A stretch of DNA of 64,000 bases from Pseudomonadota bacterium (GCA_017464085.1 JAFUEE010000104.1:16226-80225), one strand, 5' to 3'; numbered from the stretch's first letter, positions 4,609-64,000 are shown. Program-made: numbers and translations. The notes: generated from the sequence alone by a model not told the origin.

Positions 4609-4652
4609 GAAACAAAAACAGCTTGTAGTGTCTGCGAGTCGCCGACTGGGTG

Positions 4653-22850: not shown

Positions 22851-22911
22851 GGGGGAAGACTCCCCCTGCGCGGCTATTCCTTGCCGGGGCAAGGAATACG
22901 CCGCTACCCCC
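22851..22911 (+). repeat. REP-like element subfamily A copy A4 (variant inner hairpin tattccttgccggggcaaggaata)
   Basis: It shares the gggggaagactccccctgcgcggc...tacgccgctaccccc frame with A1 and A5. The inner stem-loop is replaced by a longer perfect palindrome. Confidence 0.8.
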
Positions 22912-24136: not shown

Positions 24137-24426
24137 ATTGCACTTCCTTGATGAGCGAGTCACGCCAGGCTTCTGCTGACTTGAAACACTCTATAATAAA
24201 TTGGGGCGTTTGACCAGTAAACTGACGCGCATACCATGTGTAAGGTATCTGAATTGTCTCGCTCTGAATGATAATACAGGGGAGATATTTCAGGATAACT
24301 TGAAAATGACTTGATTTGTTCGAGTGATTTGTTAATTGATGCAAAGATATTTGGGTTAATTCTTTCGGTCTGCTTTGGCGGATCTGTCCTGTTCTGCGAG
24401 TGCAGAGTTTTTTATATGGAGGAGAA

Positions 24427-27960: not shown

Positions 27961-28156
27961 TGGCCGCTATCCCTCAGGGATATGCGGCTTTTTGCATTTT
28001 GCTGAATCTGTCATATCGGTCATGGTGTGGACAATGCGTATCAGATGTGGCAAAAGGGCCGGGGCGTATGGAGTGAAACGAAATAGCCACGGCGCGCGGG
28101 CGCATGACCGCGTGCGGTCAAAGCCGGCGCATAAAATTTAAAAAAATGAGATAGAG

Positions 28157-33450: not shown

Positions 33451-36400
33451 TTATGCGATGTGTTCGGAGAACGTGCTGGAGACGTAGTAAGCGAGAACGC
33501 TTCTCAGCACGTATGAGACTTCAAATGCCTTGCTGATTTCGTCGATGGTCTTGACATTGCGCTGTTCGGTGATGCGGTCATCGATGCGCGTCTCGGCTCT
33601 CCAGACGGTTCTCATATCGGCAACGATATAGGAAGCGAGGATGTCGCTCGAGAGGAGCATGTCGCGCGTGAAGGTTTCGGCGCATTCGCGGAGCTTGTCG
33701 GCGTCGTAGACAGAGATCTGCGCGCTGAGGTTCTTGAGGTCTTCCTCGGTGAGCGCGGCCTTGATTTTGCTGACGAGAGCCTGAGTCTCCTGCGTGACGG
33801 GGATGACATCTGCAGCGGCGAGGACGGCTTTTGGAAGGATGTCGCGGATTTCAGCGGGAGCAGAAGCGAGGATGCGGACATCCGGGTGGGCGAGTCCGAG
33901 GCCTTTGGCAAGCCAGAACTGAAGCTCGTTGCCGGCAGCTTTCTGGAAGATTTCGGTGCGTATGCAGACGATGAGCGGATCGGCGCTGACGATGACGATG
34001 GCTTCAGGAAGCTCGGAAGAGCGCCAGAGGGCGATGTTTTCGAGTCCGAGGCCGGCGCGCATCTGATGGAAGATCTTCCCGTTGGGCGTGAACTCAGTGA
34101 CTTCGGTTGCACCAGTCGTGACCTGTTCGAGCGATGTGGGTCCGAGCGGCCCGAGTTTCAGGCTGACGGCCTGGAGCGCATCGAGGATGGCGAACTGTTC
34201 GTCGGAGAGGACAGGGAGCGCCTTGGCGATCGAATCGAGTGAGATGGACTCAGTCTTTTCGAACTTGTTCTTGAGATCGTTGAGGGTTTCCTTTGTCTGA
34301 GCGTCGAGCTGTAGCAACGCGCGCAGCGGCGACATGATTGCCCATGCCTGGAGCTCTCGTCCTGCCTGGAGATGTGACTGCGCGAGTTTGAGCGCGTAGT
34401 TGTAGCAGCCCGAGCAATAGGTGATTGCTTTTTCCATCAGCATGCGAGTTTTTTCTTCGTCATCCTGCGGCATCGCGAGCAATTTCTCGATAATCTCTGC
34501 TGAAGGCGCTGTTTCGAGGAGGCGGTAGAGGATCGAGGATGCCTTCTTTGGTTCGTTGAGCTGTTTGGAATAGAGATCCGCGAGTCGGACGAGGATGGCA
34601 TTTTCCTGATCTTTTGGGAGATCGCTCTCGAGGCGACCGTCGAGGAGTTCAGCGAGCTGTTTCCATTCCTGAGTGGCGACGAGCATTCTTTCGAGGCCGT
34701 CGAACGCGCGCGAGAGGCCGGGCTGATAGGAGAGGGCCATATCGTAAGCTTCCGTTGCGCTTTCCGTGGAGATTGACTCGGAGAGTTCGCCGCGTGTGCA
34801 CCAGAGGCTTGCGAGGACGGCAGGATCGACAGTTGTCTTTGTGAGCGTATCGACGAGCTCGAGAGCTTCCTGATAGCGGCCGGCGCGTTTGTAGACTTCG
34901 AGGCTGCGTTCGACGAGGTCAACATTGGATGCGCCGTTGTTGAGAGCGCCTTCATAGTAGATGCCGGCTTCATCGGCATCATTGAAGCAGTCGCTCCAGA
35001 TTTTGCCCATGTCGTAGTAGGTGTTTCCTCTGCGTTTGGTCTGATCCGGCGTGACGAGGAGGCTCTGCTGCAGGCTTGCGAGAGCGAGCAGGGGCTGATT
35101 CAGTTCGGCGTAGCTCTTTGCGATTGCCATGAGTGCATCGTAGTGGAGCGGCGCGATCTTGATTGTTTCGCGAAGGTCGTCGAGAGCATGTGCGTAATCC
35201 TTGCGGTTGTTGGAGAGCAGGCCGCGTTTGAACAGGACTTCGCTCTTAGTCTCTTTATCCAGAGCATTGTTTGTCTTGAGAATCGTGTCGTAAATGCCGT
35301 AAGCCTTGTCGAGGTTTCCGCAATCCTGTTCGAAATCGCCGATAGCCATTGCCACAGGGGCGAAGCTCGGAGCGATCGCATAGGCTCTGCGGAGCAGAGT
35401 TTCGGATTTTGCGTCGTTGCCGCATGCCTGAGCGACCTGAGCGACATCGAACATCAGCTTGGCGATCTTCGGCGCCTGATCGGGCGTCGGGAGCGTGGTG
35501 CGCTCGACTGCGCCGAAAGCGCCGAGGGAGGCTTCATAAGCCTCTTTGAGGTTGTTGCATTTTTCCTCGATAGAAGCGAGCCTCTGCCAGGCTTCGATAT
35601 TGTCGTGATCGACAGCGATGGCTTTCCATGCCCAGATGCGGGCGGCATCATTGGAATCTGCCTTGCAGGAGAGCTCGACGAGTTTCTTGGAACGGTCTGA
35701 CCATGAGAGCTCGCGTTCATTCTCGAGCGGGAGCAGGGCGCTTGTCGAGCGCCAGTTTTTGAGGCGGCGCCCAAGACTTCTGAGGCTGTCTGAGGCTTCG
35801 ACGTTGTTGGCATCGAGGATGCGGGCATTTCTGTAGAATGTTCCGACCTGTGCGGTGCGGTCTTTGTCGTCGCAGACTTCAGCCATGTGGCAGTAGAAGA
35901 TGGCGCCCCAGACCGGATCGACGAGTTTCAGGACGCTTTCGAGCGCATTGAGATAAAGGTCGATGTCGCCTTTTTTGAGCGCCATGCTTGCGAGCCCGAA
36001 GTAGGCATTCTTTTCGGGCGTGCCGGTCTTGTTGATGTTGCGGTATGTCTCGATGGCGGCATCTGTCTGGTCGAGTGCAAGCGCCTGAATGCGAGCGAGT
36101 TCGAAGAGATGGGTTTTGTTGACCGATTTGCTGTTGGGATTTCCGGCCAGCTCACGGATGGTGTCGGCGTATTTGTTCCAATCGCCTGCAGCTCTCAGGC
36201 TTGCGCAATAGCGGTCGATGATTTCGTCGTTATCCGGTTCGAGTTTCTGGAGTTTTTCAACAATCCTGGCGCTCAGCGCGGCATCGTGCAGTTTTTCATC
36301 GACGATTTCGAGTGCAGCATTGTAGATGTCGGAGGCTTCCAGCTCGTCATCATCCACGATGCTGTCAGCGCGTTCGAGCATGATCTGTACAAGATTTGGC

Positions 36401-39400
36401 CAGAGCTTGAGCGCTGTGTAGGCATCTTTGAGCGGCGCATAGCCGATGCCGCAGGCACCTGTCTCTTTGTAGAGTTTTTCGAGTGTTTCGCATGCAGCAT
36501 CAGGCTGTGAGAGCTGATCGCGCTGCAGGCCGGCGATCTGGAGCAGTATTTCCGGACGCTTGTCTTCGCTGGAGAGCTTGAGTTCGAGCTTGAGACGTCT
36601 GAGTTCGACCTCAGGGCCGATATCGGCATCCGTGAGGGCAGCCAGGCCGTTGCGTGCATCCTCGTTTGTCTCGTCGATCTGCAGGATTTCTGCATAGCCG
36701 TCGAAAGCGCTTTCGAGGTCAGAGAGATGATTGTTGGAGATGTCGACGACGCGAAGCCAGAGGGCGATTTTCTGTTCGGGCGTGCAGCCGCCGGCAGAGA
36801 TGCGCTGCTGGATTTCCGAGCGGAGCTGAGCCCATTCTTCGCGTGCTTCGTGCCAGGCGATGAGTGATTCGAGTGATTCGATGCAGCTTGGCTCGATGTG
36901 AAGGATAGTGCGTTCGACATCGACACTGCGCTCGAGGTCGTTTAATGGCCCTTTGTAGAAGTCAGCGAGTTTTCTGTAGAGCGAGAGGCTTGTATCGATT
37001 TCTCCGGATGCGTGCGCTCTGGAGGCAGCGAGCCTGAGCGTCTGAGCATATCTGCCTGCGAGTCTGGGATCTTCCGACCATGCGGCGAGTTTTTCGAGCG
37101 AATCGAGATTTGAGGGTTCAGCAGTGAGCACTGAAGCGTGGAGGGCGAAAGCGCCTGCGATGCTGCCGAGTTTTGTCTCGTAGATGTCTGCGACTGCGGT
37201 CAGTGATGTGGAATCTGCAGAGAATGCGCGTTTTGCGCTTTCGAGCATCGTCACGCAGAGCGGAGCATTTTCGGGGATGTCGGTCTCGGCGATGAGTTTG
37301 GCTTCGAGTTCTGCGGATGGCATGAGGCGATAGCCGATGAAGAGCTCTGTAAGCGCTTCATAGCCGTGTGCGAGAACATTTTTCTGGATGTTGAAGCATT
37401 TGTCGGCGATTTCGGCGCGAAGCGACTTGTCTTCCGTGGCATCCCAGATTTCGCCATAGATGCCGAGGAGCTGTTCGCTGAGGCCTTTTTCGAGCGCGAG
37501 GCGTTCGATATTCTCGAGAAGCTCGGCATTGGCGGGATCCATCGCGAGCAGGCGCTGATATTCTTCGAGTGCGCGAGCGGGATCGTCAAGGCGTGTGAGG
37601 AGGATATCGATGCGTTTCTGAATCGCGGAGCGGCGAATTTCGGGGGCGAACTGAGCGGAAGTCAGGCAGCCGAGGACAGCGACGACTTCTTCCCAGCGGT
37701 TTGTCTGCGGCGCGAGTTTTTCGAGTTCTTCCGCGAGCGCGACGGCTTTCTGGTCATCGAGCGCTGAAGCGAACAGGATTGTGAACGCGAGCGTGTAGTC
37801 GCTGAAGTCTTCGGTATGGATGCGCGCGATGTCGCTCAGGAGCCTGTCACGTTCTTCGACGGTATCAGCTTCGAAAGCGCGGCGTGTCCATGCGGCGCAC
37901 AAATCCTTGCTGTGGTTCTGTGAGCGGCAGAGCGAGACGAAGTCGTTCTCGATGGAGTGGTCTCCGAGCTGCAGGATTCTGCGCATGAGCTGGATGCGTT
38001 GCACGACGTTTGTCTTGGGGATGAAGCGCAGCGTCTGCTTGAGGACATTGCAGCGCTTGTCTGTGTCATCGGTGAGCGTGGCTGCGATTTCGAGCGCAGC
38101 GATGACGATGCCGCGTTCGGATTCGTTGCAGAGCGATTCGAGCGCCGAGAGCGCTGTTTCGTTCGTCGGATCCCAGCAGAGGACGCGGAGATAGGCAGAT
38201 ACTGCCTGTGCGTGAGGCGCGCAGTCAACACTGGCGTCGGCGATACGCATTGCAAGCGATATGCGCTCATCGCGGTTTTCGATTGTGCGGAGCGCCTGTT
38301 CCCAGGCTCCGATCATTTCTGATTCGCGGTGGAGCTTTTCGAGCACTTCGGAGAGGTTTTCAAGGGCGTTGCGATTATCTGGGTCGCAGTCGAGGACGAT
38401 TTCCCAAGCGGCAGCGGTATGCGCAGAGGCCGGGCTGTGCTGCATGAGGTATTTGCCCTTGCTTTCCGCGAGCGGGAGGACATTTTCGGGATCTGCGACG
38501 CGGATCTGCTGTGTCAGGCTGCTGTCGAGCGATTCGAAGTCGCCCTGTTTTGCGTAAACGCGGGAGAGCTCTTCGCTGACATCTGGGTCGCGTGGATCGA
38601 TGGCTTGGACTTTTTTCCAGCAGTCTTCTGCGCGTTCATAATTTTCGAGCTTGTCGAGGTAGAGCGTGCCGAGTTTTGAGAGCAGCTCGCGGCGTGCGGC
38701 CGGACGGCTCGTGAGCGCGAGCAGTGCTTCCATTGAGGTGGCAACGCCCTGATCATCGTCAAGCGCCTCATAGAGGGAGATAATCTTCTTGTGCGTGTCG
38801 ACATCGCTGTTGTCGAGCTCGACGAGTTTCTTGAGCAGCGAGATGGCGACTTCATTGTCGAAGAGCCGTGTTTCGGCGACATCAGCAGCTTTTCTGTAAT
38901 TGTCGATGGCGGCAGCAGTATTATCGGCGCTCAGTGCGGCTTCTGCGCGTTCTTTGTAGAAATTGCAGAGCTGGTCATTGAGGTCGCCCTGGAGGAAGTA
39001 CTGTTCTTTGGCGTGGAGTGCATCTCTGTCGTTGGGGAGCTCGAGAAGGATGGCGTCATAGGCTTCGACCGCGAGTTCATATTCGCCTTTGTTCCAGAGG
39101 ACTTCCGCCGCAGCGCGATGGATGTCGAGTTCGACTTTCTTGTCGAGGCCGGGCATGCGGCTGAGCTTAGCGAGTTTGTCGACGTCCCCATTGAGGCGGC
39201 AGACGCTGATTTCCTGGAGGAGAAGAAGCGGATCGTTCGGTCTGTCTTTGAGGAGGACTTTGAGCGTTTCGGAAGCGCGTTCCGCATCGCTGAGGCCGGA
39301 GATGTAGATCTCGATGACTTCGCGCAGGCCCAGTCTCTGGATATGTCCCCAGTCGGCGCATTTCGTGCGGATGAATTCGGCAAGTTTCTGCCAGCAGGCA

Positions 39401-41028
39401 TGTTCGCGATATGCGGCCATCAGCGAGCTCTGGACTTCGTCGCTGTGTTCCCCGAGATTCCAGAGGTGTTCCCAGTCGCGGATGACGAGTTTCGAGTCGG
39501 AGAGTTCTTGTTCTGCGATATCGACCGCTTTCTGGGTGTAGAGCAGGCGGTCTTCGCTTTCCCAGATGGCATCGACGACCTTGCTGTACATGTCGTGAAT
39601 GGCGCGGAAATCACCGGTAGCGCGCAGCGCGTTGTCCATATAGGTGAGTGCGCTTTCGTTTGAGGGGTCTTCGCGGAGGAGCTGCGCGAATGTTTCCCGT
39701 TCTTTTTCTTTGTTGTCGAGCTTGTCGCCATAGATGCCTGCCATTTCCTTAAGGATGGAGCTTCTGACTTCAGGCAGGTCGGCCCAGGGGGCATACTGGA
39801 GGACGTTCTGCATCATCTGGACGAGTTCGTTCCAGCTTTGCGTGCGGAGGAGGGATCGGGATTCCCTTCTATATGCAGCATTATCCCTGAGGCTTGCTTC
39901 GTTTCTGAGTTCGGGCGGTATTGGCTTGATGACGAATGCCGGGCCTTTTTCAGCGGGTGCATCCTCTGGAAGGCTGTCTTCGTCTTCGTATTCAGGCTCG
40001 GGTTCGGGGATGACTGCGGGCGCCTGTACTGGAGGCGTTGTCAGGAGCAGCGGCTCGGCATTTTCCGAGGGCGGGATATCGTCGATAGAGACTGCATCAT
40101 CGATTTCATCCTTGTCTTTTGCTGTTTCTGGCTGTTCATCGATGACGGGGTCAGGTGTTTCTGGCTGTTCATCGATGACGGGTTCAGGCGTTTCTGCATC
40201 TTCTTCTGCTTTTTCGAGTTCCGGTTCGATGGCAGGTTCAGGTTCGTGCTGAGCTTCGATGTCTTCATGGTTTTCAGCGACGGGTTCAGGAGCAGCGGTG
40301 TGTTCCTCGACGGGTTCAGGCTGATCGGGTGCTTCGTCAAGAGCTTCTGGCTGAGCGGTGTGTTCCTCGACGGGTTCAGGCTGAGCGGCTGTTTCGTCAA
40401 GAGCTTCTGGCGCTTGCGTCTCTCCATGGGCATCTTCGACGGCGGGCTGAGGCTCGCTGGGCAGCGGCATATCGATATCCGGAGCCGAAGGCTCGGCGAT
40501 CGGAGCTTCAGGTTCTGCGGCTGTTTCGACAAGTGGCTGAACGATTTCTGGCGCGACATCGGCTTTGGGCATCTCGCTGGCCGGAACATGTGCCGCACGG
40601 ATAGCCGGCATGCCATGAATCGGGGCACGTCCGGCCGGCGCGCCATGAATTGCAGGGGCGGCAGGGGCGGCAGGCGCGGCAGGCGCGGCTGCATCGGCGC
40701 CAGAGTGGATGGGCGGGCGGACGGACGGTCTTGGCGGCATGGCACCTGGGCGTTGTCCTCTCGCGGCGTTTACAGTGGGGGCTCTCCCGGGGGCAGGCGC
40801 AGGCGCTGCCGGGGCTGCCGGGGCGGGCGTTGCAGGCGCTGCGGGCGCGTTGCCTCGAGCTACAGCCTGCATGCCAGTCTGGGAAAATCTGCCCTGATTG
40901 ATATTGGCGCGGCCCGGTGTGATGGCTGGAAAACGGCCCGAAGGGGGACGCGGATTGCCACGGTCCGGCATTCCCGGTCGATGGTTATCGTTTACGCCGT
41001 TGTTCTGAGGGTCTCTTTCGTCCGTCAT
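33451..41028 (-). CDS. Giant (2525 aa) TPR/helical-repeat protein with a Pro/Ala-rich and acidic low-complexity N-terminal ~400 aa
   Basis: AGGAGA RBS 6 nt before ATG 41028. The N-terminus is rich in PAAPA and PEPVEEHTA repeats. About 2100 aa of TPR-like periodic helical sequence follow (recurring A-x-x-x-Y-x-x-A-L/ALxxDP patterns). No signal peptide. Confidence 0.85.
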   Translation of the reverse strand: MTDERDPQNNGVNDNHRPGMPDRGNPRPPSGRFPAITPGRANINQGRFSQTGMQAVARGNAPAAPATPAPAAPAAPAPAPGRAPTVNAARGQRPGAMPPRPSVRPPIHSGADAAAPAAPAAPAAPAIHGAPAGRAPIHGMPAIRAAHVPASEMPKADVAPEIVQPLVETAAEPEAPIAEPSAPDIDMPLPSEPQPAVEDAHGETQAPEALDETAAQPEPVEEHTAQPEALDEAPDQPEPVEEHTAAPEPVAENHEDIEAQHEPEPAIEPELEKAEEDAETPEPVIDEQPETPDPVIDEQPETAKDKDEIDDAVSIDDIPPSENAEPLLLTTPPVQAPAVIPEPEPEYEDEDSLPEDAPAEKGPAFVIKPIPPELRNEASLRDNAAYRRESRSLLRTQSWNELVQMMQNVLQYAPWADLPEVRSSILKEMAGIYGDKLDNKEKERETFAQLLREDPSNESALTYMDNALRATGDFRAIHDMYSKVVDAIWESEDRLLYTQKAVDIAEQELSDSKLVIRDWEHLWNLGEHSDEVQSSLMAAYREHACWQKLAEFIRTKCADWGHIQRLGLREVIEIYISGLSDAERASETLKVLLKDRPNDPLLLLQEISVCRLNGDVDKLAKLSRMPGLDKKVELDIHRAAAEVLWNKGEYELAVEAYDAILLELPNDRDALHAKEQYFLQGDLNDQLCNFYKERAEAALSADNTAAAIDNYRKAADVAETRLFDNEVAISLLKKLVELDNSDVDTHKKIISLYEALDDDQGVATSMEALLALTSRPAARRELLSKLGTLYLDKLENYERAEDCWKKVQAIDPRDPDVSEELSRVYAKQGDFESLDSSLTQQIRVADPENVLPLAESKGKYLMQHSPASAHTAAAWEIVLDCDPDNRNALENLSEVLEKLHRESEMIGAWEQALRTIENRDERISLAMRIADASVDCAPHAQAVSAYLRVLCWDPTNETALSALESLCNESERGIVIAALEIAATLTDDTDKRCNVLKQTLRFIPKTNVVQRIQLMRRILQLGDHSIENDFVSLCRSQNHSKDLCAAWTRRAFEADTVEERDRLLSDIARIHTEDFSDYTLAFTILFASALDDQKAVALAEELEKLAPQTNRWEEVVAVLGCLTSAQFAPEIRRSAIQKRIDILLTRLDDPARALEEYQRLLAMDPANAELLENIERLALEKGLSEQLLGIYGEIWDATEDKSLRAEIADKCFNIQKNVLAHGYEALTELFIGYRLMPSAELEAKLIAETDIPENAPLCVTMLESAKRAFSADSTSLTAVADIYETKLGSIAGAFALHASVLTAEPSNLDSLEKLAAWSEDPRLAGRYAQTLRLAASRAHASGEIDTSLSLYRKLADFYKGPLNDLERSVDVERTILHIEPSCIESLESLIAWHEAREEWAQLRSEIQQRISAGGCTPEQKIALWLRVVDISNNHLSDLESAFDGYAEILQIDETNEDARNGLAALTDADIGPEVELRRLKLELKLSSEDKRPEILLQIAGLQRDQLSQPDAACETLEKLYKETGACGIGYAPLKDAYTALKLWPNLVQIMLERADSIVDDDELEASDIYNAALEIVDEKLHDAALSARIVEKLQKLEPDNDEIIDRYCASLRAAGDWNKYADTIRELAGNPNSKSVNKTHLFELARIQALALDQTDAAIETYRNINKTGTPEKNAYFGLASMALKKGDIDLYLNALESVLKLVDPVWGAIFYCHMAEVCDDKDRTAQVGTFYRNARILDANNVEASDSLRSLGRRLKNWRSTSALLPLENERELSWSDRSKKLVELSCKADSNDAARIWAWKAIAVDHDNIEAWQRLASIEEKCNNLKEAYEASLGAFGAVERTTLPTPDQAPKIAKLMFDVAQVAQACGNDAKSETLLRRAYAIAPSFAPVAMAIGDFEQDCGNLDKAYGIYDTILKTNNALDKETKSEVLFKRGLLSNNRKDYAHALDDLRETIKIAPLHYDALMAIAKSYAELNQPLLALASLQQSLLVTPDQTKRRGNTYYDMGKIWSDCFNDADEAGIYYEGALNNGASNVDLVERSLEVYKRAGRYQEALELVDTLTKTTVDPAVLASLWCTRGELSESISTESATEAYDMALSYQPGLSRAFDGLERMLVATQEWKQLAELLDGRLESDLPKDQENAILVRLADLYSKQLNEPKKASSILYRLLETAPSAEIIEKLLAMPQDDEEKTRMLMEKAITYCSGCYNYALKLAQSHLQAGRELQAWAIMSPLRALLQLDAQTKETLNDLKNKFEKTESISLDSIAKALPVLSDEQFAILDALQAVSLKLGPLGPTSLEQVTTGATEVTEFTPNGKIFHQMRAGLGLENIALWRSSELPEAIVIVSADPLIVCIRTEIFQKAAGNELQFWLAKGLGLAHPDVRILASAPAEIRDILPKAVLAAADVIPVTQETQALVSKIKAALTEEDLKNLSAQISVYDADKLRECAETFTRDMLLSSDILASYIVADMRTVWRAETRIDDRITEQRNVKTIDEISKAFEVSYVLRSVLAYYVSSTFSEHIA
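40100..40400 (-). repeat. In-frame coding tandem repeats (39-bp x2 and ~60-bp x2) encoding acidic PETPDPVIDEQ / EALDEAPDQPEPVEEHTAQP units
   Basis: tttctggctgttcatcgatgacgggktcaggygtttctg is duplicated. cgacgggttcaggctgakcgg...caagagcttctggc is duplicated. Confidence 0.75.
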
Positions 41029-41592
41029 TTCTGCTCTCCTGAGAATAGAATTGAATGAGGCCGTTTAGGGCCAAAAGAAAGACGGCGTATTGTATTACTT
41101 TTTTACAGTTTGCTCAATTGATTTAAGGATAATGCGCGATATTGGCTGATTTTTGGGCATGGGATATTTCCCAAGGCTGTGCGGCCGGCGTATCGCTTTG
41201 CGATAGCCGGCCGTTGCGTCGCGTGCCGAAGGCAGCGACGCGCCAGAAATGCGAATTTTTGTGATTACGATGTCCAGCGGGAGAGTGGAAACTCATGCGG
41301 AAATTTGATCATTGTGAAGTGATGCTTTGTGGACGGCGCGGATGGCAGCGAAAAAAGAGTGGCCGTGGTTCGCGGTTTGGGCTTGATTTTTGTGAAGGCG
41401 TGATAATTTTCGTGCGCCGCCATCCGTATGATGTTGCGGATGATGCTTTTTATGAGACGAAAAACTGATAATCTGTTATGAATAATAGTTCGGACAGACA
41501 TTGGCGCTGAGCCGGTTCTGGCTGCCAACAACGATACTGGATATTTGCGCCGACGGCGCGCCAATATTCACCCGTGCATACAGGAGACAATC
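41029..41592. promoter_or_regulatory. 564-bp divergent promoter region between the two TPR genes; contains REP-like palindrome C3
   Basis: Long non-coding gap with AT-rich core (tgatgctttttatgagacgaaaaactgataatctgttatgaataatag). The only ORF here (99 aa) is low-complexity and unsupported. Confidence 0.4.
41181..41244. repeat. REP-like element subfamily C copy C3 (GCGGCCGGCGTATCGCTTTGCGATAGCCGGCC plus second hairpin)
   Basis: 28-mer nearly identical to copy C4 at 51468. A second imperfect hairpin is cgtcgcgtgccgaaggcagcgacg. Confidence 0.75.
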
Positions 41593-50106: not shown

Positions 50107-50162
50107 TGGCTTGGGTGGGGGAAGACTCCCCCTTCGCGGCTATTTGCTTTGCAAATACGCCG
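50107..50162 (+). repeat. REP-like element subfamily A copy A5 (inner hairpin tatttgctttgcaaata)
   Basis: gggggaagactcccccttcgcggctatttgctttgcaaatacgccgctaccccctcg lies between dnaB and the M20 amidohydrolase gene. Confidence 0.8.
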
Positions 50163-50249
50163 CTACCCCCTCGATTTTGTAGTGATTTGCGGGGCGTATA
50201 ACAAGCTTCTGTGGTTGTGGCAAGCCGGAAGTGGGAGTTGCCGTGAGCC

Positions 50250-51386: not shown

Positions 51387-51693
51387 AGATGTGCCATTTG
51401 TTGTAACTAGGCGGAATGCACGGATTGCATTTCGGAGAAGGATCTGGAGGGTCGAAACGGTGTGGCGGCGGCGTATCGCTTGCGATAGCCGGCGCGGCGA
51501 AGCCGTATCGCCGTCAGGCGATAGGCGAGTCAAAATAGATGGAATAATTCCGATTGGGCAAATGTTTTAACGACAGAAATTCTGATATGCCATATAGGGG
51601 TATATTAGAAGACATGTAGTTATTTTTCTTGCATCGTAGGTCTGTTTGAGTAAAAATGCCCAGGGGGACTAGAGCATAGGAGGCATTATTTTT
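51387..51693. promoter_or_regulatory. Upstream region of the RND efflux operon containing REP-like palindrome C4 (candidate operator)
   Basis: 307-bp gap. A GTATCGCTTGCGATAG inverted repeat lies at ~51473..51488. An AT-rich promoter-like stretch is at 51540..51690. An AGGAGG RBS is at 51678. Confidence 0.4.
51465..51526. repeat. REP-like element subfamily C copy C4 (GGCGGCGTATCGCTTGCGATAGCCGGCG plus second hairpin tatcgccgtcaggcgata)
   Basis: Near-identical to copy C3 at 41181. Confidence 0.75.
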
Positions 51694-56524: not shown

Positions 56525-56619
56525 TTAAATGCGTTCCGGCATGAAATAGAAGCCAGATGACTTTGCGTTCCATGCCGGAGAAGCTTATTGACCTTCGAGC
56601 TCAATGGAGTTCAAGATAT

Positions 56620-58344
56620 ATGAATATCAGACATAAGAAGCTTTTGATCGGTTCTGTGGTGCTGGCCGCAGGCATGGCAGCCACGACGTCTTATGCTCAG
56701 GATGCAGCGCCTGGTGCTTCGGGAACCAAAGAACTGACATGGCAGGATATCAACGCCAATGATTCCAGGGATTTTTATGATCCATCGGTCATTGATCCGA
56801 GCGTAGGCGCTCAGACGGATAAGAATGCTCAGGCTGCGCGCAGCACGCTTGAGGCGACGCACGATGCCGATCTTCCGGAGCGTCCGCATGTCCAGCAGGG
56901 ATTGCCCGGGGAGAATTTTTTGGCGGCTCAGGTCGAGCAGATTTCCGAGCTCAGCGAGATCAAGCCGGGGCCGGCAATGACGCTCAAAGAAGCACTGCTG
57001 ATGGCCGATGAAAAGAACATCGACCTTGCGAGCGCGCGCGTACAGCTCGATACGGCGCGTGCTCAGCTCAAGCAGGCGTGGGCGATGCTCTTGCCGAACA
57101 TCTCCGCCTCTCTCTCGTGGGCGCATCTCGGCACGCCGGTTGATGGCACGGCTTCGACGCGTTCCGCCGTCTCGAGCGTCGGACAGACGTTTTCCAAAAT
57201 CGGGGAGCAGATGGGCGGCTCGACAGATCCGACAGCAGCCCTGATGTCCGGCGCGATCAAGCAGCTCGGCGATGGCATGGTCACCGCTTCCGAGCAGATC
57301 CCGAGCGCGATGGTTCAGGATTCGCTCGCTTTTGGCGTCACTGTCGGTCTCTCGATCGTCAATGTCGCCGGATGGTTCCAGCTCCGCATGCTCGATGAAG
57401 CGACCAGCATCACCGAACTCGGCATCGAGAATGGACGTCAGCAGCTCCTCGCAGGCGTTGCACAGGCTTATATGGCGGCTTTGCTCTGCGGGGAAGTCGT
57501 CAAGGTCCAGCGCGTCCAGCTCAAATCCGCACTCGATCAGCTCTCGCTGGCTCAGGGCCGCTATGATCGCGGCGCCGATGTCAAGCTCTCCGTCATTCAG
57601 GCTCAGTTTGCCGTCGAAAAACAGCGCCAGTCCTTGATTGATGCCATCTGGTCTTATGAAACGGCTCGCGATGCGCTCGCGAATCTCCTCAATACGGACG
57701 GCCTGCCCGTGCCTCAGCCCACGCATCTCAAAGGCGTCGGCATCACGAGTGATGAAGAGCTCGAAAATGAAGCACTCGCGGCCAACAGGACACTTAAAAT
57801 CAACCGCATGACTCAGGATGTCAACCGCCTCAACCTCAACGCGGCCATTGCCGGCTTCTTCCCGACTGTTTCAGGCTTCTGGAAATATGATTACACCTGG
57901 AGCGATGTCTGGATGAACGGCAAGAATGACTGGTCTGGGTCCGGCTCCTGGACGATGGGCGTCTCGATTTCCATCCCTCTTTTCGATTATTCAAAATTCG
58001 GTGTGCTCGACGAGCGGAAAGCGTCGATGCTTTCTACCGATCTCGCAATCCAGTCTACCGAAAATTCGACGCGCATGGCCGTTCGCAAAGCCAAACGCGA
58101 ATATTATTCGGCACTGTTCAGCGTCGATAATGCCAAGCGCCAGGTCGAGCTCGCGCGCGAAGCCCTCCAGCTCAATGAAGCGGCTTACAAAAACGGCGCA
58201 TCGACTTTCATCGATGTCAGCAATGCGCGCAACAATGTCGCATCCGCTTCGATCGCATACATCACATCCGGCATTCAGTCCGAGCTCTCTCTGATCTCCC
58301 TGATCTCGACACTCGGACGCGATATCATGGAAGTCGTGTACTAG
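56620..58344 (+). CDS. Outer membrane efflux protein (TolC-like OMF) of the RND system
   Basis: Signal peptide MNIRHKKLLIGSVVLAAGMAATTSYA. Two repeated OEP halves (LKEALLMADEKNIDLASAR...; RQVELAREALQLNEAAYKNGASTFIDVSNAR). Confidence 0.85.
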   Translation: MNIRHKKLLIGSVVLAAGMAATTSYAQDAAPGASGTKELTWQDINANDSRDFYDPSVIDPSVGAQTDKNAQAARSTLEATHDADLPERPHVQQGLPGENFLAAQVEQISELSEIKPGPAMTLKEALLMADEKNIDLASARVQLDTARAQLKQAWAMLLPNISASLSWAHLGTPVDGTASTRSAVSSVGQTFSKIGEQMGGSTDPTAALMSGAIKQLGDGMVTASEQIPSAMVQDSLAFGVTVGLSIVNVAGWFQLRMLDEATSITELGIENGRQQLLAGVAQAYMAALLCGEVVKVQRVQLKSALDQLSLAQGRYDRGADVKLSVIQAQFAVEKQRQSLIDAIWSYETARDALANLLNTDGLPVPQPTHLKGVGITSDEELENEALAANRTLKINRMTQDVNRLNLNAAIAGFFPTVSGFWKYDYTWSDVWMNGKNDWSGSGSWTMGVSISIPLFDYSKFGVLDERKASMLSTDLAIQSTENSTRMAVRKAKREYYSALFSVDNAKRQVELAREALQLNEAAYKNGASTFIDVSNARNNVASASIAYITSGIQSELSLISLISTLGRDIMEVVY

Positions 58345-58402
58345 AAGAGCCTTCAATCAGGCTTGAAGCGCTGCAGTCCGATGGGCTGTGGCGCTTTTTT
58401 TT

Positions 58403-58476
58403 GCGCGCCGCTATCCGCGTGAACGCGGATACGCGCCGCCTTTCGGCCTATTGCCGCTTTGCGGCAATACGGCGCG
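58403..58476. repeat. REP-like element subfamily B copy B1: two hairpins tatccgcgtgaacgcggata and tattgccgctttgcggcaata
   Basis: Near-identical to copy B2 at 62209..62278. It lies 3' of the GLUG lipoprotein gene. Confidence 0.85.
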
Positions 58477-58657
58477 TTATTTCATATCAACTGCGGGAAG
58501 CAATCGCACGATGCGACAAATCAGCACTGCGGGAAGCAATCGCGCGCAACGAAAGATGATGCAGGATGGCTTGAGGCAGTCGCGTCAGGAAATGCTCAGA
58601 CGCAGAGCTGCGGCAGCGCATCGGCGCATGTTTTGCCGCAGGCTTCGCGAGAACTGG

Positions 58658-61600
58658 TCAGTGGCAGTTGTTCGGGGTGATGCCAGGCATCGGCAGGGTA
58701 TAGGTGCCATAACCAGGAATAGAGCAAGTCTTTGACAGCCAGTTGCCATTGGAACAGTTGGCTTTGAGCGCATTGAGCATCGCCGTGCCATTGGTCGTGG
58801 GCGTGTTGTTGCTCAGTGTGAATAGCGAAGACGTGCTTGTGTAGTTCTTATCTGTGGCCGTTTGATATGTCTGATTATAGACGAAGTTGGGGGCAGTTTG
58901 ACTGAACGTTTGTGAGCCGTAGCAGACAGCAGCAGTATTTTGCGAGTTCGTAAAGACAGAGGCTATCCAGTTGCAGTTGAGGGTTGAACCAGACGAATGG
59001 GAAGCGTCGGAGGTGCCGACCAAGCCGCTCTTTGTGTCACCCGACAGGCGTGCTACAGCAAAGCTGTTCTGGATGGATATTGACTGCGTGTTTGTAGCGA
59101 TATAGCCGACGAGACCCCCGGCAGGATAGCCCGATATGTTCCCGAAGGCGCCAGATTTGATTATGGATGTGCCGGTTTTTTGTTCACCGATGAGACCGCC
59201 GGATGCGCCCCCGCAGGTGATATTGCTGTTATAATAGGACGCCTGGATGCTTCCGCCTGTGAATGAGCCTGCCAGACCGCCGCAAGTGCCCATCGCTGAG
59301 AGGATACATGTGGCATAGGAACGCGTAATTACTAAGCCACTGCTTATGCCGATGAGACCGCCATAATAGTTTCTTGATGCACCGTTCACATTGCCTGAGG
59401 CGTGTGAATCGCTGATGGAGCCGCCTCCACCCTGACCGATGAGGCCGCCGGCGATTCCGCTTGCAGCTACTGTTTTGCTGGATGCGCTGCTGTTCGTGAC
59501 GCTTGTTCCTGACAGCATCCCGATGATGCCGCCTGATATCTGCGCAGTAGCCGTAACGGATGCGCTTGAGGTGACGTTTGAAACGCTTCCGTTCTCTATC
59601 ATGCCGATCATGCCGCCGACTTTGTTTTTCCCAGAAACTGTGCCGCTGACGGTGATGTTGGAAAATTCTGCATGAGTGGCCTTTCCTGCCAGACCGCCGA
59701 CAGTATCGTAACTGGATGAAATGCTGACTGAGAGTTTCAGGTCTTGGAATTTCGCCTTGTTTGAGCTTTCGGCCTTGATTAATCCAAAGATACCGCAATA
59801 CTCGGCATTGCATTTCAGTGTGCCCGATAGCGTTTTGTCATTGCCGAGAATTGTTCCCGAAAAAGGATGAGCGCCTGTACCTGTGCCGACCCAGCTATTC
59901 TGGGTGCCGAGATCGATGTTGCGCGTCAGCGCAAAGGTGGCGTTATCATTGTCGGAAGGCCAGTTTTTGCCTTCATTGATCGCATTGCGGAAGCTCAAAA
60001 AATCTTCGGCCGAAGAGATGCATGCGGCTTTGACATTGTTGATTGTCGTATATCCGCCCGGGCATTTGCATGTCTTATTCTGGCAAGTTTCGCCATGAGC
60101 GCAGGCATTGCCGTGGCTGCCGCAGTGGCTATCGCTGTCTGGTTCGCAGGTGTTGTTGTAGAGATGATAGCTGGCTTTGCACGCAGTGGCTCTGCATTGC
60201 TTGTCTGTGCACGTGCCGTTTGCCCATCCGGTGATGAGCGCCGCGCAGGCGTTGTCATGACTGCCGCAGTTGGCCTGGGAGTCCGGTTCGCAGGTGTTGT
60301 TATATAGATGTGCGCTGGCGTTGCATGAATTAATCTTGCATTGGCCAGATGAATCACAGGTGCTGCTCGAAACATTGGAAAGCGCGCTGCAGTCTGTGCA
60401 CGAGATGCCGCAGTGATTTGTTTCATTAATGCACTGGTTGTTGTATAGGCAGCTGTTGTTGCAGGTCGATTTGACACAAGTGCCGGCTTGGCAGAACTCA
60501 TCCTTTGCTGCGCATGTGTGACCGCAGCTGCCGCAATTGTTCGAGTCTGTATTAAAATTGGATGTGGGGATACAGTTCGGAAGGTCGGGCGTGCCGCAAT
60601 TGGTATATCCAGCTTCGCACTGGAATTGGCATTTGCCCTTCAAACATGTGTTGGAGGTCGCATGGCTTTGCGGATGGTTGGCGCAGACATAGCCGCATGA
60701 GCCGCAGTTCTGAGCATCTGCGGCATACAGGTTCACGCACGCATTTGCGCAGAGCGTTTCCGATGAGTTTGGGCAGGAAGTCTGTATGCATTGACCGTTC
60801 AGGCAATTCTGACCTGAGGCACATGTCTTATAATTCTGGCACTGGGCATCTGCGCCGCAGAAGGTGTTGTCCGATTGCGGGTCGATGCAGACTGCGGTGT
60901 AAGAGTCGCGCATGCATCGGATCATGCTGGAATCGCAGTCATCTTTGCATTCCCCGTTCGAGCAGAGTTGCCCAGGCGCGCATGGAGATGGCGGATCGCC
61001 GCATGCGGATGGCGAATCCTGTTCGCAGGTTTTGCCGGACAGGTGATATCCCGCAGCGCACGACAGAGGTACGCAGGTCATGTCCGTGCAGGTGCCAAAC
61101 GCCCAGCCTTGAATGATATTTTTGCACTGGAGATTATGTTCGCCGCAATTGTCGATGCTGTCCGGTTCGCATTGATTTTGATAGAGGTGCTGCCCTGCGT
61201 CGCATTCGGTGCGGGGCACACATTTGCCGTCTTTGATTTCATAGATGCTTTCGCATTTCGTGACCACGCATTCGGTCTTGAAGCATTCGTTTTCGCGGCA
61301 TACGCCGCCGGAACATTCGGAATCGCTCTGGCATTCCTTATGGCTGTTGACCAGCTCGCATCCGCCGGAAATCCATCCCGCGCGTTCGGTGCAGATGTTG
61401 CCGTGGCTGCCGCAGTTGTTCAGGTCATCGGGTTCGCATTGACCGTTATAGTAGTGCATGCCGATGTCGCAGCCGATCCTTGCCTCGCATTTGCCATTGA
61501 AGAGGTCGTATCCTTTGGCGCTGTCGCAGGCTGTTGCGGAGCACAGGCTGTTGCGGCATTCCCCGTCAATCCAGCCGCTGATCATATTCTGGCAAACGTT

Positions 61601-62128
61601 GCCGTGGCTGCCGCAGTTATAGATGTCGTCTTCTTCGCAGATGCCTTTGTATAGATGCTGGTCAGGGCTACATTCTGTCAGTGCATTGCATTTTCCTGCA
61701 TTGACCGTGTACCCTTCTTGGCAGCTGTCTGCATGACATTTGCCAGACCGGCATGAGCCTGTTTCCCAGCCCGGGATTTCGTGCGCGCAGCTGTAATCAT
61801 GTTGTCCGCAGTTTTCAAGATCGTCCGGCTCGCAGTGCCCGTTGTAGATATGTTCGTCCTGTTCGCATTGGATGGCAGTGCAGTAAAATAGGCCACTGTC
61901 GTCTTGCGCGCAAACCGGCACATCAGACGGGCACATGCCTGTACTGAAGTTTTTCTCGTAATTTTGGCTGTCGCAAGATTCGGCTGTGCAATCTTGAGAC
62001 TTGATATAGCTGAGTTTGCCGGCCTGGTCTTTGGGCGGGCATGGGTCGCCATAGCGCTCGATATCGTCCAGGGCGCAGCTGTTGAGGATAACTATGCTCG
62101 ATATATAAAACAGAATTCTTTTATGCAT
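58658..62128 (-). CDS. Lipoprotein with N-terminal Cys-rich ~48-aa repeats (HxYNGxCEPDDxxNCGSHGNxC...) and C-terminal GLUG-motif repeat domain
   Basis: GGAG RBS. Signal and lipobox are ILNSCALDD. At least 6 Cys-rich modules. The C-terminal 450 aa carry repeated GG[LIM][IAV]G motifs (VGGLAGKA, GGMIGMI, GGIIGML, GGLIGQG, GGLIGIS, GGLAGSF, GGLIGEQ, GGLVGYI) typical of the GLUG motif family. Confidence 0.8.
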   Translation of the reverse strand: MHKRILFYISSIVILNSCALDDIERYGDPCPPKDQAGKLSYIKSQDCTAESCDSQNYEKNFSTGMCPSDVPVCAQDDSGLFYCTAIQCEQDEHIYNGHCEPDDLENCGQHDYSCAHEIPGWETGSCRSGKCHADSCQEGYTVNAGKCNALTECSPDQHLYKGICEEDDIYNCGSHGNVCQNMISGWIDGECRNSLCSATACDSAKGYDLFNGKCEARIGCDIGMHYYNGQCEPDDLNNCGSHGNICTERAGWISGGCELVNSHKECQSDSECSGGVCRENECFKTECVVTKCESIYEIKDGKCVPRTECDAGQHLYQNQCEPDSIDNCGEHNLQCKNIIQGWAFGTCTDMTCVPLSCAAGYHLSGKTCEQDSPSACGDPPSPCAPGQLCSNGECKDDCDSSMIRCMRDSYTAVCIDPQSDNTFCGADAQCQNYKTCASGQNCLNGQCIQTSCPNSSETLCANACVNLYAADAQNCGSCGYVCANHPQSHATSNTCLKGKCQFQCEAGYTNCGTPDLPNCIPTSNFNTDSNNCGSCGHTCAAKDEFCQAGTCVKSTCNNSCLYNNQCINETNHCGISCTDCSALSNVSSSTCDSSGQCKINSCNASAHLYNNTCEPDSQANCGSHDNACAALITGWANGTCTDKQCRATACKASYHLYNNTCEPDSDSHCGSHGNACAHGETCQNKTCKCPGGYTTINNVKAACISSAEDFLSFRNAINEGKNWPSDNDNATFALTRNIDLGTQNSWVGTGTGAHPFSGTILGNDKTLSGTLKCNAEYCGIFGLIKAESSNKAKFQDLKLSVSISSSYDTVGGLAGKATHAEFSNITVSGTVSGKNKVGGMIGMIENGSVSNVTSSASVTATAQISGGIIGMLSGTSVTNSSASSKTVAASGIAGGLIGQGGGGSISDSHASGNVNGASRNYYGGLIGISSGLVITRSYATCILSAMGTCGGLAGSFTGGSIQASYYNSNITCGGASGGLIGEQKTGTSIIKSGAFGNISGYPAGGLVGYIATNTQSISIQNSFAVARLSGDTKSGLVGTSDASHSSGSTLNCNWIASVFTNSQNTAAVCYGSQTFSQTAPNFVYNQTYQTATDKNYTSTSSLFTLSNNTPTTNGTAMLNALKANCSNGNWLSKTCSIPGYGTYTLPMPGITPNNCH

Positions 62129-62208
62129 ACAAAACTCCGATAAGCCCCCCCGAATGGCGGAGAATAGTCAGCTTTTGTGTTCATATCAATGGGAAAACAG
62201 GCGCTTGG

Positions 62209-62278
62209 CGCGCCGCTATCCGCGTGAACGCGGATACGCGCCGCCTTTCGGCCTATTGCCGATTTGCGGCAATACGGC
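62209..62278. repeat. REP-like element subfamily B copy B2
   Basis: cgccgctatccgcgtgaacgcggatacgcgccgcctttcggcctattgccgatttgcggcaatacggc lies 3' of the partial paralogue gene. Confidence 0.85.
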
Positions 62279-62498
62279 CTTCATGAAGGAGTCCGATGAG
62301 GAGTGCTAAATCGCATGTCCTCATCAGATTGCTGTTATTGGTACATGATAAGGCTTGGTGCTATGATCAAAAAATGCTTCTATGTGCCTTCAAGTGTCTA
62401 GATGCGCAGAGTATTGAGCAGTCAGGCGGAAAAGCATGAGAATACCAAAATGGCAAAAAATCCCCGGAACTCCCGGGGATTCTGATCATTACTATGGG

Positions 62499-64000
62499 TC
62501 AGTGACAGTTGGCAGGGCTGAGATCTGGTGGGATTGATAGGGTATAAGTGGCCGGGCCTGCCAGACCGTTGCTGAGCGTGCAGGACTGTGCTGTCCATTT
62601 GCTGGAGCATTCGTTCTTGAGTACATTCAGGATATGTGAGCCTTCCCACATGAGTGTGTGGTTAGAGAGAGGGCTTATGTTTGCATACTCTCTGTTGGTG
62701 GCTGAGGAATACGTTGCCTCGTAAACAAAATTTGGTCCGTTTTGCTTGAATGTTTTTTCACCATTGAGCACGGCACCTTTGGCGTTAGATTGCCCTTTAA
62801 AGACAGCGCCGATCCAGTTGCAATCCAGAATAGATGCGCCATCGGCCGGCGCGTTGGAGCTGCCAATCATGCCGCCTGTGGTGGTTCCAGTCAGATCGAC
62901 TGCTGTAATGTTGTTCTGAAGCTTCAGTGTTTTGGCTTCTTTGTCGACAGTGCCGATCAGGCCGCCAGATGTGCTGCCTGAGACAATCCCGAATGCGCCG
63001 GAATTATAGATTGTCGTTTCTGAATAGGCTCTGCCAACGAGGCCTCCGTTAGAACCGCTGCCGTCGACAGTGCCGTCATGATAGGAAGACTTGATGGTAA
63101 CTCTTGATGTAGAACCTGCGATGCCACCGCTTGCACTGTCTGAGCCAACCAAGCCTGTCGAATAACAATTGGTTATTGAGCCTTCTGATGCAAAGCCGGA
63201 AATTCCACCTGCTTGGAAGCCTGTAATTGTTCCTGTAGAGTATGAGTTTGTGATGCTTACACCGTTAGAACTTTTTCCCGCAATTCCGCCTGCCTGGCTT
63301 CCGTTGGCTGTCACAGCTCCTGAGGTGTTGCAGTGTGTAATATTGGTACCTTGAACTTCTCCGACAATGCCGCCAGCGCTTTGGTCAGATGCGGTAACAC
63401 TGCTACTGGATGAGCATGTATCTATCTCTCCTGGTGCAAAATATCCAACAATGCCGCCGACATAGGATTTGCCATTGATTACGCCTGTCGATGTGAGATT
63501 ATGGAGATTGGTATAAGTTGCATGACCGATAATTCCACCGACATAATTACTGCTGGAATTGACTGTAACCGTACTGCGTATCCCTAGGATATTTGTAGAT
63601 GATGTATCTTTTCCTGCTGCATAACCGAAGATACCGCATTTGTCACTACTGCAATTGAGAGAGCCAGAGATTGTCGCGTTGCTGAGACCGTAGAAATTTC
63701 CAATAAATGGATTGCTGCTTGTACCGACGCCTATCCAGTTGTTTTGAGTTCCTAGGCTGATACTTCGCGTGAGCGCATAAGATTTATTTGTATTGTCGGA
63801 TGGCCAGGTTTTGCCGCTATTGATTGCATTTCGGAAGCTCAAAAAATCTTCGACAGAAGAGATGCATGCGGCTTTGCCGCCATTGACTGTCGTATATCCG
63901 CCCGGGCATTTGCATGTCTTATTCTGGCAAGTTTCGCCATTTTGGCATTTATTTCCATGGCTGCCGCAGTTTGTGCTGCTGTCGAGTTCGCAGGCATAGC
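62499..64000 (-). CDS. Tandem paralogue of the Cys-rich/GLUG lipoprotein, 5'-truncated by the window edge
   Basis: Minus-strand translation is open from 62499 to the window end. The last ~160 nt are near-identical at DNA level to 59995..60160 (CKCPGGYTT...ACISS.EDFLSFRNAIN). The C-terminus has GLUG-type GG[IL]xG repeats. The annotated 447-aa ORF starts at a TTG that is an internal Leu. Confidence 0.75.
   Translation of the reverse strand, partial: YACELDSSTNCGSHGNKCQNGETCQNKTCKCPGGYTTVNGGKAACISSVEDFLSFRNAINSGKTWPSDNTNKSYALTRSISLGTQNNWIGVGTSSNPFIGNFYGLSNATISGSLNCSSDKCGIFGYAAGKDTSSTNILGIRSTVTVNSSSNYVGGIIGHATYTNLHNLTSTGVINGKSYVGGIVGYFAPGEIDTCSSSSSVTASDQSAGGIVGEVQGTNITHCNTSGAVTANGSQAGGIAGKSSNGVSITNSYSTGTITGFQAGGISGFASEGSITNCYSTGLVGSDSASGGIAGSTSRVTIKSSYHDGTVDGSGSNGGLVGRAYSETTIYNSGAFGIVSGSTSGGLIGTVDKEAKTLKLQNNITAVDLTGTTTGGMIGSSNAPADGASILDCNWIGAVFKGQSNAKGAVLNGEKTFKQNGPNFVYEATYSSATNREYANISPLSNHTLMWEGSHILNVLKNECSSKWTAQSCTLSNGLAGPATYTLSIPPDLSPANCH

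Follow-up and report, generated by a model that had tools for sequence, protein, structure and literature searches.

Tandem GLUG lipoprotein genes and REP-like double hairpins at a locus of an uncultured gut Myxococcota bacterium

Repetitive extragenic palindromic (REP) elements are short (~20-40 nt) imperfect palindromes with a stable stem-loop, which occur in many dispersed, extragenic copies. In Escherichia coli, REP sequences and bacterial interspersed mosaic elements (BIMEs) take part in transcript-end protection, backup termination and insulation between convergent or tandem genes. Families of surface genes can be driven by gene conversion; Treponema tpr and Neisseria pilE/pilS are examples. 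REP superfamilies tagged by GTAG and by CGTC have been surveyed (Di Nocera et al. 2013, PMC3733652), and known families are described as including head-to-tail dimers, heterodimers with different stems and tandem clusters, and as lying between convergent or unidirectional genes (PMC3733652). Systems of REP sequences and REP-associated tyrosine transposases (RAYTs) have been reported (Nunvar et al. 2010, PMC2817692). In REPINs (REP doublets forming hairpins), an inverted pair of REP sequences folds into one long hairpin (Bertels & Rainey 2011, PMC3116915). Here we report on two copies of a 74-nt double hairpin and on the lipoprotein genes beside them in a 64,000-nt stretch of DNA (GCA_017464085.1, JAFUEE010000104.1:16226-80225; hereafter the window), of which region 58403-64000 was analysed. 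A repeat pattern that recurs in Myxococcota genomes (see below) places the host among the uncultured gut Myxococcota (myxobacteria).

A preliminary description of this region proposed that lipoprotein gene and hairpin had been duplicated as one unit, pointing to a recent segmental duplication or to a recombination-prone contingency locus, with possible surface-protein variation. We consider it probable that the genes form an old tandem array of three paralogues and that the hairpins, which are doublets of REP-like units, were copied independently of them. A 97%-identical hairpin beside two paralogues would then mimic the duplication of gene plus element, being in fact an independently copied intergenic palindrome.

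The double hairpin and the genes beside it

Both lipoprotein genes are encoded on the minus strand. Gene 1 (58658..62128) is an intact open reading frame (ORF) of 1156 aa, and the exact protein is found on ENA/NCBI contigs. Of gene 2 the window contains the 3' part (62499..>64000), i.e. the C-terminal 499 codons, in frame up to the window end; the full gene runs 2.5 kb past this end. Copy 1 of the hairpin, named B element (58400..58473, minus; covariance-model score 93 bits), is situated 184 nt past the gene 1 stop, between gene 1 and a convergent TolC-like gene (56557..58344, plus) whose terminator it abuts. Copy 2 (62205..62278, minus) lies 220 nt past the gene 2 stop and 76 nt upstream of the gene 1 ATG, between the gene 2 terminator and the gene 1 promoter. 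The copies are in direct orientation, 3805 nt apart, and match at 72/74 bases (97%), with 0 such matches expected by chance. This confirms the near-identical element of ~70 bp which had been noticed ~180-220 bp after each stop. On either strand it folds into two hairpins (z = -4.2 to -4.5; -4.3 for copy 1). Read on the gene strand, unit 1 is GGCC-G-TAT-TGCCGC-loop-GCGGCA-ATA-GGCC and unit 2 is GCGGCGC-G-TAT-CCGCG-TTCA-CGCGG-ATA-GCGGCGC, each with a bulged G 5' of TAT. The two hairpin cores have no other occurrence in the window (0 expected in shuffles), and a search of 58300-64000 for inverted repeats gave none.

Genes 1 and 2 are tandem paralogues, as previously suggested and as borne out by BLASTP (alignment of 504 aa, 44% identity, E=2e-124), by the GLUG domain shared by their products and by the three-member array described below. 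Over the shared 491 codons a codon alignment gives 56% identity in DNA, 45% in protein and 41% at third codon positions, the latter being close to saturation. The DNA blocks of >85% identity claimed for the two genes hold for a core of ~100-120 nt (86-89%); the block named as example, 59995-60160 versus 63838-64000, is 79.6% identical (133/167). A related species, represented by contig L061, keeps the order of gene 2 orthologue (1402 aa), element, gene 1 orthologue (1171 aa) and resistance-nodulation-division (RND) efflux operon, with efflux genes 82% and lipoprotein genes ~69-70% identical to those of the window. In a third species (L062) the gene 1 part of the same arrangement is present. 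Because third positions are near saturation and both paralogues exist in L061, the gene duplication is old, predating the splits from L061 and L062. The recent date given in the preliminary description is at odds with this presence and with the DNA identity of 56%.

The intergenic regions downstream of genes 1 and 2 can be aligned at the element only; identity ends sharply at both borders and the flanks are unrelated. Gene 3, the third paralogue, shares its last codons and terminator with gene 2 but carries no element there, and none was found downstream of the more distant homologues P0001 and P0002 (L002, L003). A recent segmental duplication should leave like divergence and continuous homology across gene and flank. 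Neither is seen, and co-duplication is refuted because a 97%-identical element stands beside 56%-identical genes. As judged from these alignments, the element was not duplicated together with the genes, and a duplicated unit of gene plus 3' element, as formerly proposed, is contradicted by the mismatch in divergence, by the sharp borders and by the absence of the element at gene 3 and the homologues.

The transcriptional setting points in the same direction for copy 2. Gene 2 ends in an intrinsic terminator (62455..62483, minus) which was recognised by folding, has an 11-bp GC-rich stem followed by U6 and begins 16 nt after the stop. Homologous terminators follow gene 3 (L060 9310-9342, see below) and the gene 2 orthologue in L061; 3' end and terminator of genes 2 and 3 are 78% identical over 116 nt. 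For gene 1, a consensus scan predicts a sigma-70-like promoter at 62161..62189 (minus; TTGATA-N17-TATTCT). The window, L061 and L062 share both of its hexamers and a GGAG Shine-Dalgarno sequence without any change, in a spacer that diverges around them. Copy 2 sits beyond the gene 2 terminator and upstream of the gene 1 promoter, and is therefore not a 3' element of gene 2 in the transcript sense. At the other end of gene 1, a terminator scan revealed an intrinsic terminator of the TolC-like gene (58365..58405, plus; 15-pair stem and T run) which adjoins copy 1. By analogy with E. coli, the hairpins may act in transcript-end protection, backup termination or insulation. Downstream of the predicted -10 box and ahead of the Shine-Dalgarno sequence, the gene 1 leader also carries a C7 run (62145-62151; G7 when read on the gene strand), which is absent in L061 and L062 and has the same length in L063, a second strain of the window species (98% identical). 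Between the gene 1 stop and copy 1, at 58490-58557, there is a 36-nt tandem direct repeat (ACTGCGGGAAGCAATCGC..; 81% identical) with a small hairpin per copy and no counterpart downstream of gene 2.

The contig was extended past 64000, as the preliminary description had recommended, and 12 kb more revealed a third tandem paralogue. A look-up with homologue P0125 led to L060, a 140-kb ENA contig which is 100% identical to the window across 11,502 nt and adds 11,954 nt; look-ups with gene 1 and the TolC-like protein returned solely contigs broken at the elements. In gene orientation, the order on L060 is TonB-dependent receptor, LrgA, LrgB, gene 3, a 139-aa ORF, gene 2 (annotated with 1151 aa), copy 2, gene 1 and copy 1, followed on the opposite strand by the TolC-like and AcrB-like genes. 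The window thus holds just the last one and a half genes of a three-member array (gene 3, gene 2, gene 1). Gene 3 (L060 3655-9294) encodes 1879 aa with 196 Cys and at least nine consecutive 48-aa modules, and its C-terminal end (..ANCH) is homologous to that of gene 2. Three Logan contigs end at 58432, inside copy 1, and the ENA scaffold L001 ends at 62335, just beyond copy 2. Position 58432 is where a 31-mer de Bruijn graph would merge the two copies, and these assembly ends are consistent with repeat-induced graph branching. A plasmid collection searched by megablast with 58300-64000 gave no match, and a tRNA/tmRNA scan found none.

Dispersal of REP-like units and the history of the two copies

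The units of the B element belong to a family with the frame N4-CGTAT-stem-loop-stem-ATAG-N4'. The same frame occurs in other intergenic hairpins of the window, some of them with an unpaired GTAG tag: in the A-type clusters at 3345-3411, 4512-4618, 9047-9122, 22833-22900 and 50108-50173, which are found in both orientations, and further at 16367-16522 and 51468-51533. Perfect TAT-stem-loop-stem-ATA units number eight in the window, as compared to 0.18 expected from shuffles. The A-type clusters consist of GTAG-CGGCGTATTT..AAATAGCCGCG beside a GGGGGA(G/A)NCTTCCCCC hairpin; the A-type units read GTAG-CGGCGTATTT..AAATAGCCG and leave the tag unpaired. At 16367-16522 there is another REP-like doublet in two tandem 75-nt copies (92% identical, 81-nt spacing; GCGCCGCGTATCGGC..; GGCGTATGGC..GCCATAGCC). 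Further doublet-like matches are situated at 51468-51533, 41185-41246, 12992-13054 and 28061-28134. Among the window sites checked, comprising model matches and A-type clusters, 11/16 are intergenic and 5/16 lie within ORFs of a crude map; two or more of these ORFs seem to be spurious or over-extended. The extension contig carries one more REP-like doublet, upstream of gene 3 (L060 3382-3452).

Outside the window species, the A-type pattern was detected at 52 loci in metagenome-assembled genomes (MAGs) labelled Myxococcota or Myxococcales, one from water-buffalo rectum. For the B type, a covariance model was built from five copies, including those of L061, L062 and L038 (25 pairs, 96.7% of cells paired, 4 covarying pairs); slid controls collapse. 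With this model, B-type doublets were detected in L061 and L062 at the site upstream of gene 1, and in L038 in the gap that separates clpB from a DsbA-like gene. In related MAG loci it also picked up numerous full-length doublets that score lower and have other stems, and in the window it gave additional matches, again weaker ones. A gapped pattern of hairpin 1 and the start of hairpin 2 matched 13 metagenome loci, some of them tandem clusters. None of the 50 ORFs flanking these 13 loci shows similarity to the lipoprotein family. A Pfam scan of ten of them, at five loci, recognised among others ClpB, DsbA and MTHFR as well as a WG-repeat protein, a Ser/Thr kinase, a P-type ATPase and two methylases (tetrapyrrole; Eco57I-like). 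The exact hairpin 1 20-mer TATCCGCGTGAACGCGGATA has 0 matches in 185,579 species genomes and 0 in JGI metagenomes. The exact subtype is therefore specific to the window species, and looser patterns were used for dispersal. No Rfam family matched the whole window at the gathering threshold, and the hairpins are therefore not a known structured RNA. With units of 20-35 nt that are imperfect palindromes with stable stem-loops, the elements resemble REP sequences; they are also multi-copy, dispersed and extragenic, the B subtype having only two copies in 76 kb. They do not form a REPIN: two different units stand head-to-tail, each folding separately.

The two copies differ in their history. Copy 2 is found at the orthologous site upstream of gene 1 in L061 (5024-5093) and L062 (136-209) with ~86-87% identity. 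Near the 3' end of the TolC-like gene, L061 and L062 have a doublet with different stems, that is, of another subtype. In both, the gene 1 orthologue and TolC-like gene also have an AAA_14/DUF4143 ATPase gene between them (L061 9081-10439, L062 4493-4882), which the window species lacks. Strict positional orthology of copy 1 with this other doublet was considered, but the spacer near the TolC-like gene has been remodelled and is otherwise not alignable with L061 and L062. On this comparative ground, copy 1, which is specific to the window species, would be either a lineage-specific secondary copy or a resident site overwritten by copy 2 sequence. The two copies share their indel state within each strain: both have a short loop in hairpin 1 in L063 (TATTGCCGCA-GGCAATA), and both carry 4 additional nt in this loop in the window strain (copy 1, AAGC; copy 2, AATC). 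Across the family, either form of the loop turns up repeatedly. The simplest reading of the shared state is conversion, either between the copies or from family members, after the strains had diverged; the family would thus show signs of copy-to-copy homogenisation between strains.

Taken together, the 74-nt element would be a head-to-tail doublet of REP-like units that is dispersed through the intergenic DNA of the clade. Copy 2 would be an old resident of the spacer between the gene 2 terminator and the gene 1 promoter, and copy 1 a recent secondary copy or a converted resident REP site. Conversion, copy-to-copy or templated by the family, may keep the two alike, and a RAYT-type transposase or recombination may have done the copying.

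Several observations weigh against this model. At ~86% across species, copy 2 is more similar than the adjoining coding DNA (~69%), which may mean a locus-specific function. Parallel slippage in the hairpin loop could be the source of the shared 4-nt indel state. In B-type units, part of CGTAT/ATAG is taken up by the stem, and an unpaired GTAG is missing. The ~76 kb of the species genome that were read contain just two B-type copies, both beside the lipoprotein family, so that B-type dispersal in this genome is deduced from relatives. Finally, a tblastn search for a RAYT transposase in the window and ~0.5 Mb of related loci, with an E. coli YafM sequence as probe, found nothing, which is a weak negative.

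Sequence exchange, the state of gene 2 and competing explanations

The best long match between genes 1 and 2 is 84.4% over 205 nt and connects 59948..60150 (minus) in gene 1, at the junction of the last Cys module and the beta-helix cap, with 63792..63994 (minus) in gene 2. Within this tract, third-position identity between the genes is 0.70-0.81 as compared to 0.25-0.45 elsewhere, and third positions of gene 1 match its own orthologue at 0.50, below the match to gene 2 (0.81). The indel state is gene 2-like too: gene 1 is without the 4-aa insertion of both gene 1 orthologues and reads PGGYTT like gene 2. A 53-nt perfect run lies within the tract, and identity is more strongly clustered than in any of 2000 codon shuffles (permutation p<0.0005). 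These signatures identify a tract of roughly 200 nt as the product of gene conversion with a gene 2-type donor. Recombination between genes and modules had been suggested to vary the surface proteins. Inter-paralogue exchange is real in so far as the conversion tract exists, but on a small scale, with a single short tract. Likewise, the N-terminal modules described as repeated units of ~48 aa do show, for some Cys-rich modules, a spacing of 48 aa (144 nt), and the count of 48-aa modules varies between paralogues, but Tandem Repeats Finder detected no significant or high-identity tandem DNA repeat in 58300-64000.

Comparison of the two strains yields pN/pS ratios (non-synonymous to synonymous polymorphism) of 0.14 for gene 1, 0.27 for gene 2 and 0.07-0.11 for the efflux genes, from which purifying selection is deduced for both genes 1 and 2. 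Gene 2 is nevertheless interrupted. Upstream of annotated gene 2, the 139-aa ORF encodes a homologue of the gene 1 N-terminus (signal, lipobox and first modules); this ORF, a TAA, 41 codons and P0125 share one frame, giving gene 2 a total of 1332 codons. In the window strain the in-frame TAA at codon 140 (L060 9875-9877, ~2.1 kb past the window end) splits gene 2 into a signal-bearing fragment of 139 aa and a remainder of 1151 aa, and the truncated product occurs on four contigs from three sources. Codon 140 is TAC (Tyr) in L063 and in P0179/P0180, and gene 2 of L063 carries a 19-nt deletion instead, at L060 11056. A degraded downstream copy beyond the window had been named beforehand as a refuting result, and this is partly the case, gene 2 of the window strain being interrupted past the window end. 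Inactivation of gene 2 was recent and independent in the two strains; a long-dead pseudogene was ruled out because pN/pS between strains is 0.27 and the disruptions differ by strain. Breaks of gene 1 and of the TolC-like gene in L063 were discarded as biology, their cause being N gaps in the scaffold.

These data allow the competing explanations to be weighed. If a recent segmental duplication of gene and 3' hairpin had generated a contingency locus, one would understand that tandem paralogues each have an element 184-220 nt past the stop, that a third paralogue adjoins them, that a conversion tract exists, that the number of 48-aa modules differs between paralogues and that gene 2 has been inactivated in different ways in two strains (TAA; 19-nt deletion). 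We nonetheless hold this explanation to be very improbable: identity is 56% for the genes and 97% for the element, the element flanks are unrelated, the duplication predates the L061 split, gene 3 has no element, copy 2 lies beyond the gene 2 terminator and the element type flanks unrelated genes. Nor do the genes have the simple-sequence or high-identity repeats of a contingency locus, and they are under purifying selection (pN/pS 0.14 and 0.27). The claim of a contingency locus is further opposed by the negative Tandem Repeats Finder result, the G7 tract of the same length in two strains and the absence of inverted repeats. The doublet might, on the other hand, be a locus-specific cis element of gene 1, such as a protein-binding site, an insulator or a backup terminator, a second copy of which was recruited 3' of the gene. 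Copy 2 lies 16-38 nt upstream of an invariant -35 box in three species and is conserved at ~86% across species versus ~69% for neighbouring coding DNA, the five-sequence set of those copies and L038 contains compensatory stem changes, and both copies flank gene 1 in the same orientation. However, doublets with the same first hairpin exist in many unrelated contexts, L061 and L062 have a doublet of another subtype near the TolC-like gene, and REP families keep a high similarity by family-level turnover without locus-specific function (PMC3733652, PMC3116915). We therefore regard a cis element of this kind as unlikely.

Two further explanations assign a role to the repeats themselves. The two 74-nt direct repeats could make gene 1 a cassette, exchange between them deleting or amplifying a 3.8-kb unit of B element and gene 1 and thereby causing on/off or dosage variation. 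The repeats are indeed direct, 3805 nt apart and 97% identical, and the same indel state of both copies in each strain implies sequence exchange. However, repeats of 74 nt are on the short side for RecA to exchange them efficiently, the assemblies retrieved included no contig with a junction left by deletion or amplification, and gene 1 is intact, its constraint being the strongest among the three genes (pN/pS 0.14), so that we give the cassette little credence. A combined explanation, in which the doublets actively exchange sequence and make gene 1 an excisable or amplifiable cassette while copy 2 is also a conserved insulator between terminator and promoter, appears to us improbable. If true, it would give a REP family a part in setting the dosage of a surface protein at the level of the locus, and this in a phylum from which REP systems appear undescribed. 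We thus retain an old three-paralogue array with independently copied REP-like doublets as the probable explanation.

Protein architecture and comparison with known systems

The array genes are predicted to encode lipoproteins. The gene 1 N-terminus (MHKRILFYISSIVILNSC) is a signal peptide with the lipobox ..ILNSC; in the other five of six homologues the lipobox reads ..LSGC, ..FSGC or ..ASGC. Next in gene 1 come a modular stalk rich in cysteine (103 Cys), the GLUG beta-helix and, at the C-terminus, a short tail with NCH as its last residues. Pfam GLUG (PF07581) is recognised in both proteins with 30.1 and 46.9 bits at a gathering cut-off of 20.5 (gene 1 E 5e-7). An AlphaFold2 model of gene 1 aa 697-1156, calculated from an alignment of 60 sequences, has a mean predicted local distance difference test score (pLDDT) of 85, and of >95 over residues 10-300 of the 460-aa segment; the segment is modelled as a parallel beta-helix with a disordered tail. 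In a fold search, the best PDB matches were BACOVA_03286 ('putative IgA1 protease', 3n6z) and the beta-helices of streptococcal IgA1 protease (6xja, 7uvl), next to which came tailspikes and pectate-lyase-like enzymes. A PDB sequence search with the GLUG half found nothing. An assignment to IgA1 protease or M26 zinc metalloprotease (ZmpA/B/C) was rejected: there is just a 13.8-bit partial ZmpB match over the GLUG region, and none of the six homologues contains an HExxH motif, because of which the lipoproteins are not proteases. From the architecture, the beta-helix head may serve in adhesion or ligand binding at the surface. Bacteria of this kind possess arrays of large lipoproteins in which a disulfide-rich modular stalk bears a GLUG beta-helix like that of IgA1 proteases but no protease; the arrays show conversion between paralogues and the inactivation of one member in a strain-specific way.

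Elsewhere in the window, large ORFs with internal Cys-rich repeats are located at 24400-27924 and 9276-12959 (e.g. 24534-24738, 24852-25092, 10760-11493), and Cys-rich secreted proteins are apparently plentiful in the genome. Very large ORFs (2054 and 2525 aa) or ORFs with 30- or 33-nt periodic in-frame arrays of low-complexity, linker-like sequence lie at 16589-22753, 33451-41028, 2667-2864, 15746-16028 and 40144-40404.

With the GLUG regions of IgA1 proteases (Streptococcus pneumoniae ZmpA, 6XJA/6XJB/7UVL; G. haemolysans, 7UVK) and with Bacteroides ovatus BACOVA_03286 (3N6Z) the lipoproteins share a GLUG match above threshold and a predicted beta-helix of which these are the best matches. 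They differ from IgA1 proteases by the lack of an M26 domain, by a beta-helix mounted on a Cys-rich lipoprotein stalk and not on an LPXTG/protease scaffold, and by an identity of 14-18% to the PDB chains. The stalk is similar to myxobacterial Cys-rich proteins (NCBIfam NF041328, MXAN_6577-like; Pfam PF21671, CPL1-like) in its Cys modules of the CxxDxxxNCGxHGxxC type, although the matches are weak, with scores far under the curated cut-offs (43 versus 100 bits), and the stalk is fused here to a GLUG beta-helix. Relatives of the stalk carry PF21671, with Stig1, LRR5 and DUF285 as other heads. As in gene-conversion-driven surface families, clustered tandem paralogues of a surface protein have a mosaic conversion tract. 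Unlike those families, the locus has a single short and not very recent tract (84-89%) and lacks silent cassettes; elsewhere the divergence of the genes has reached saturation, and purifying selection acts on them.

The hairpins share with REP/BIME sequences that they are short, imperfect, GC-rich palindromes of 20-35 nt with a bulged base, mainly extragenic and multi-copy, which are found singly, as dimers and in tandem clusters, lie between genes that converge or run in one direction, and keep their pairing in stem variants; the A-type units have the unpaired GTAG as well. They differ in host, a gut Myxococcota bacterium, the survey of 2013 naming neither Myxococcota nor Deltaproteobacteria in a term search (PMC3733652), in the position of the B-type GTAT/ATAG within the stem, and in a head-to-tail doublet, while head-to-head (HH) dimers predominate in known families. 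Like REPINs (PMC3116915), the doublet is a discrete repeated element of two REP units with sharp borders and within-genome copying; its units have direct orientation and separate folds as compared to the inverted pair and single long hairpin of REPINs. Among uncultured Myxococcota, both gut and environmental, a REP-like family built on the CGTAT..ATAG frame, with several subtypes of stem and with tandem clusters, appears to be widespread. What is understood of REP elements and of surface-protein families is not changed by this family or by the lipoprotein arrays. For the most part the locus is ordinary: two known phenomena meet in it, namely tandem surface-lipoprotein genes of old origin that show limited conversion, and REP-like intergenic palindromes whose copying and homogenisation are independent of the genes.

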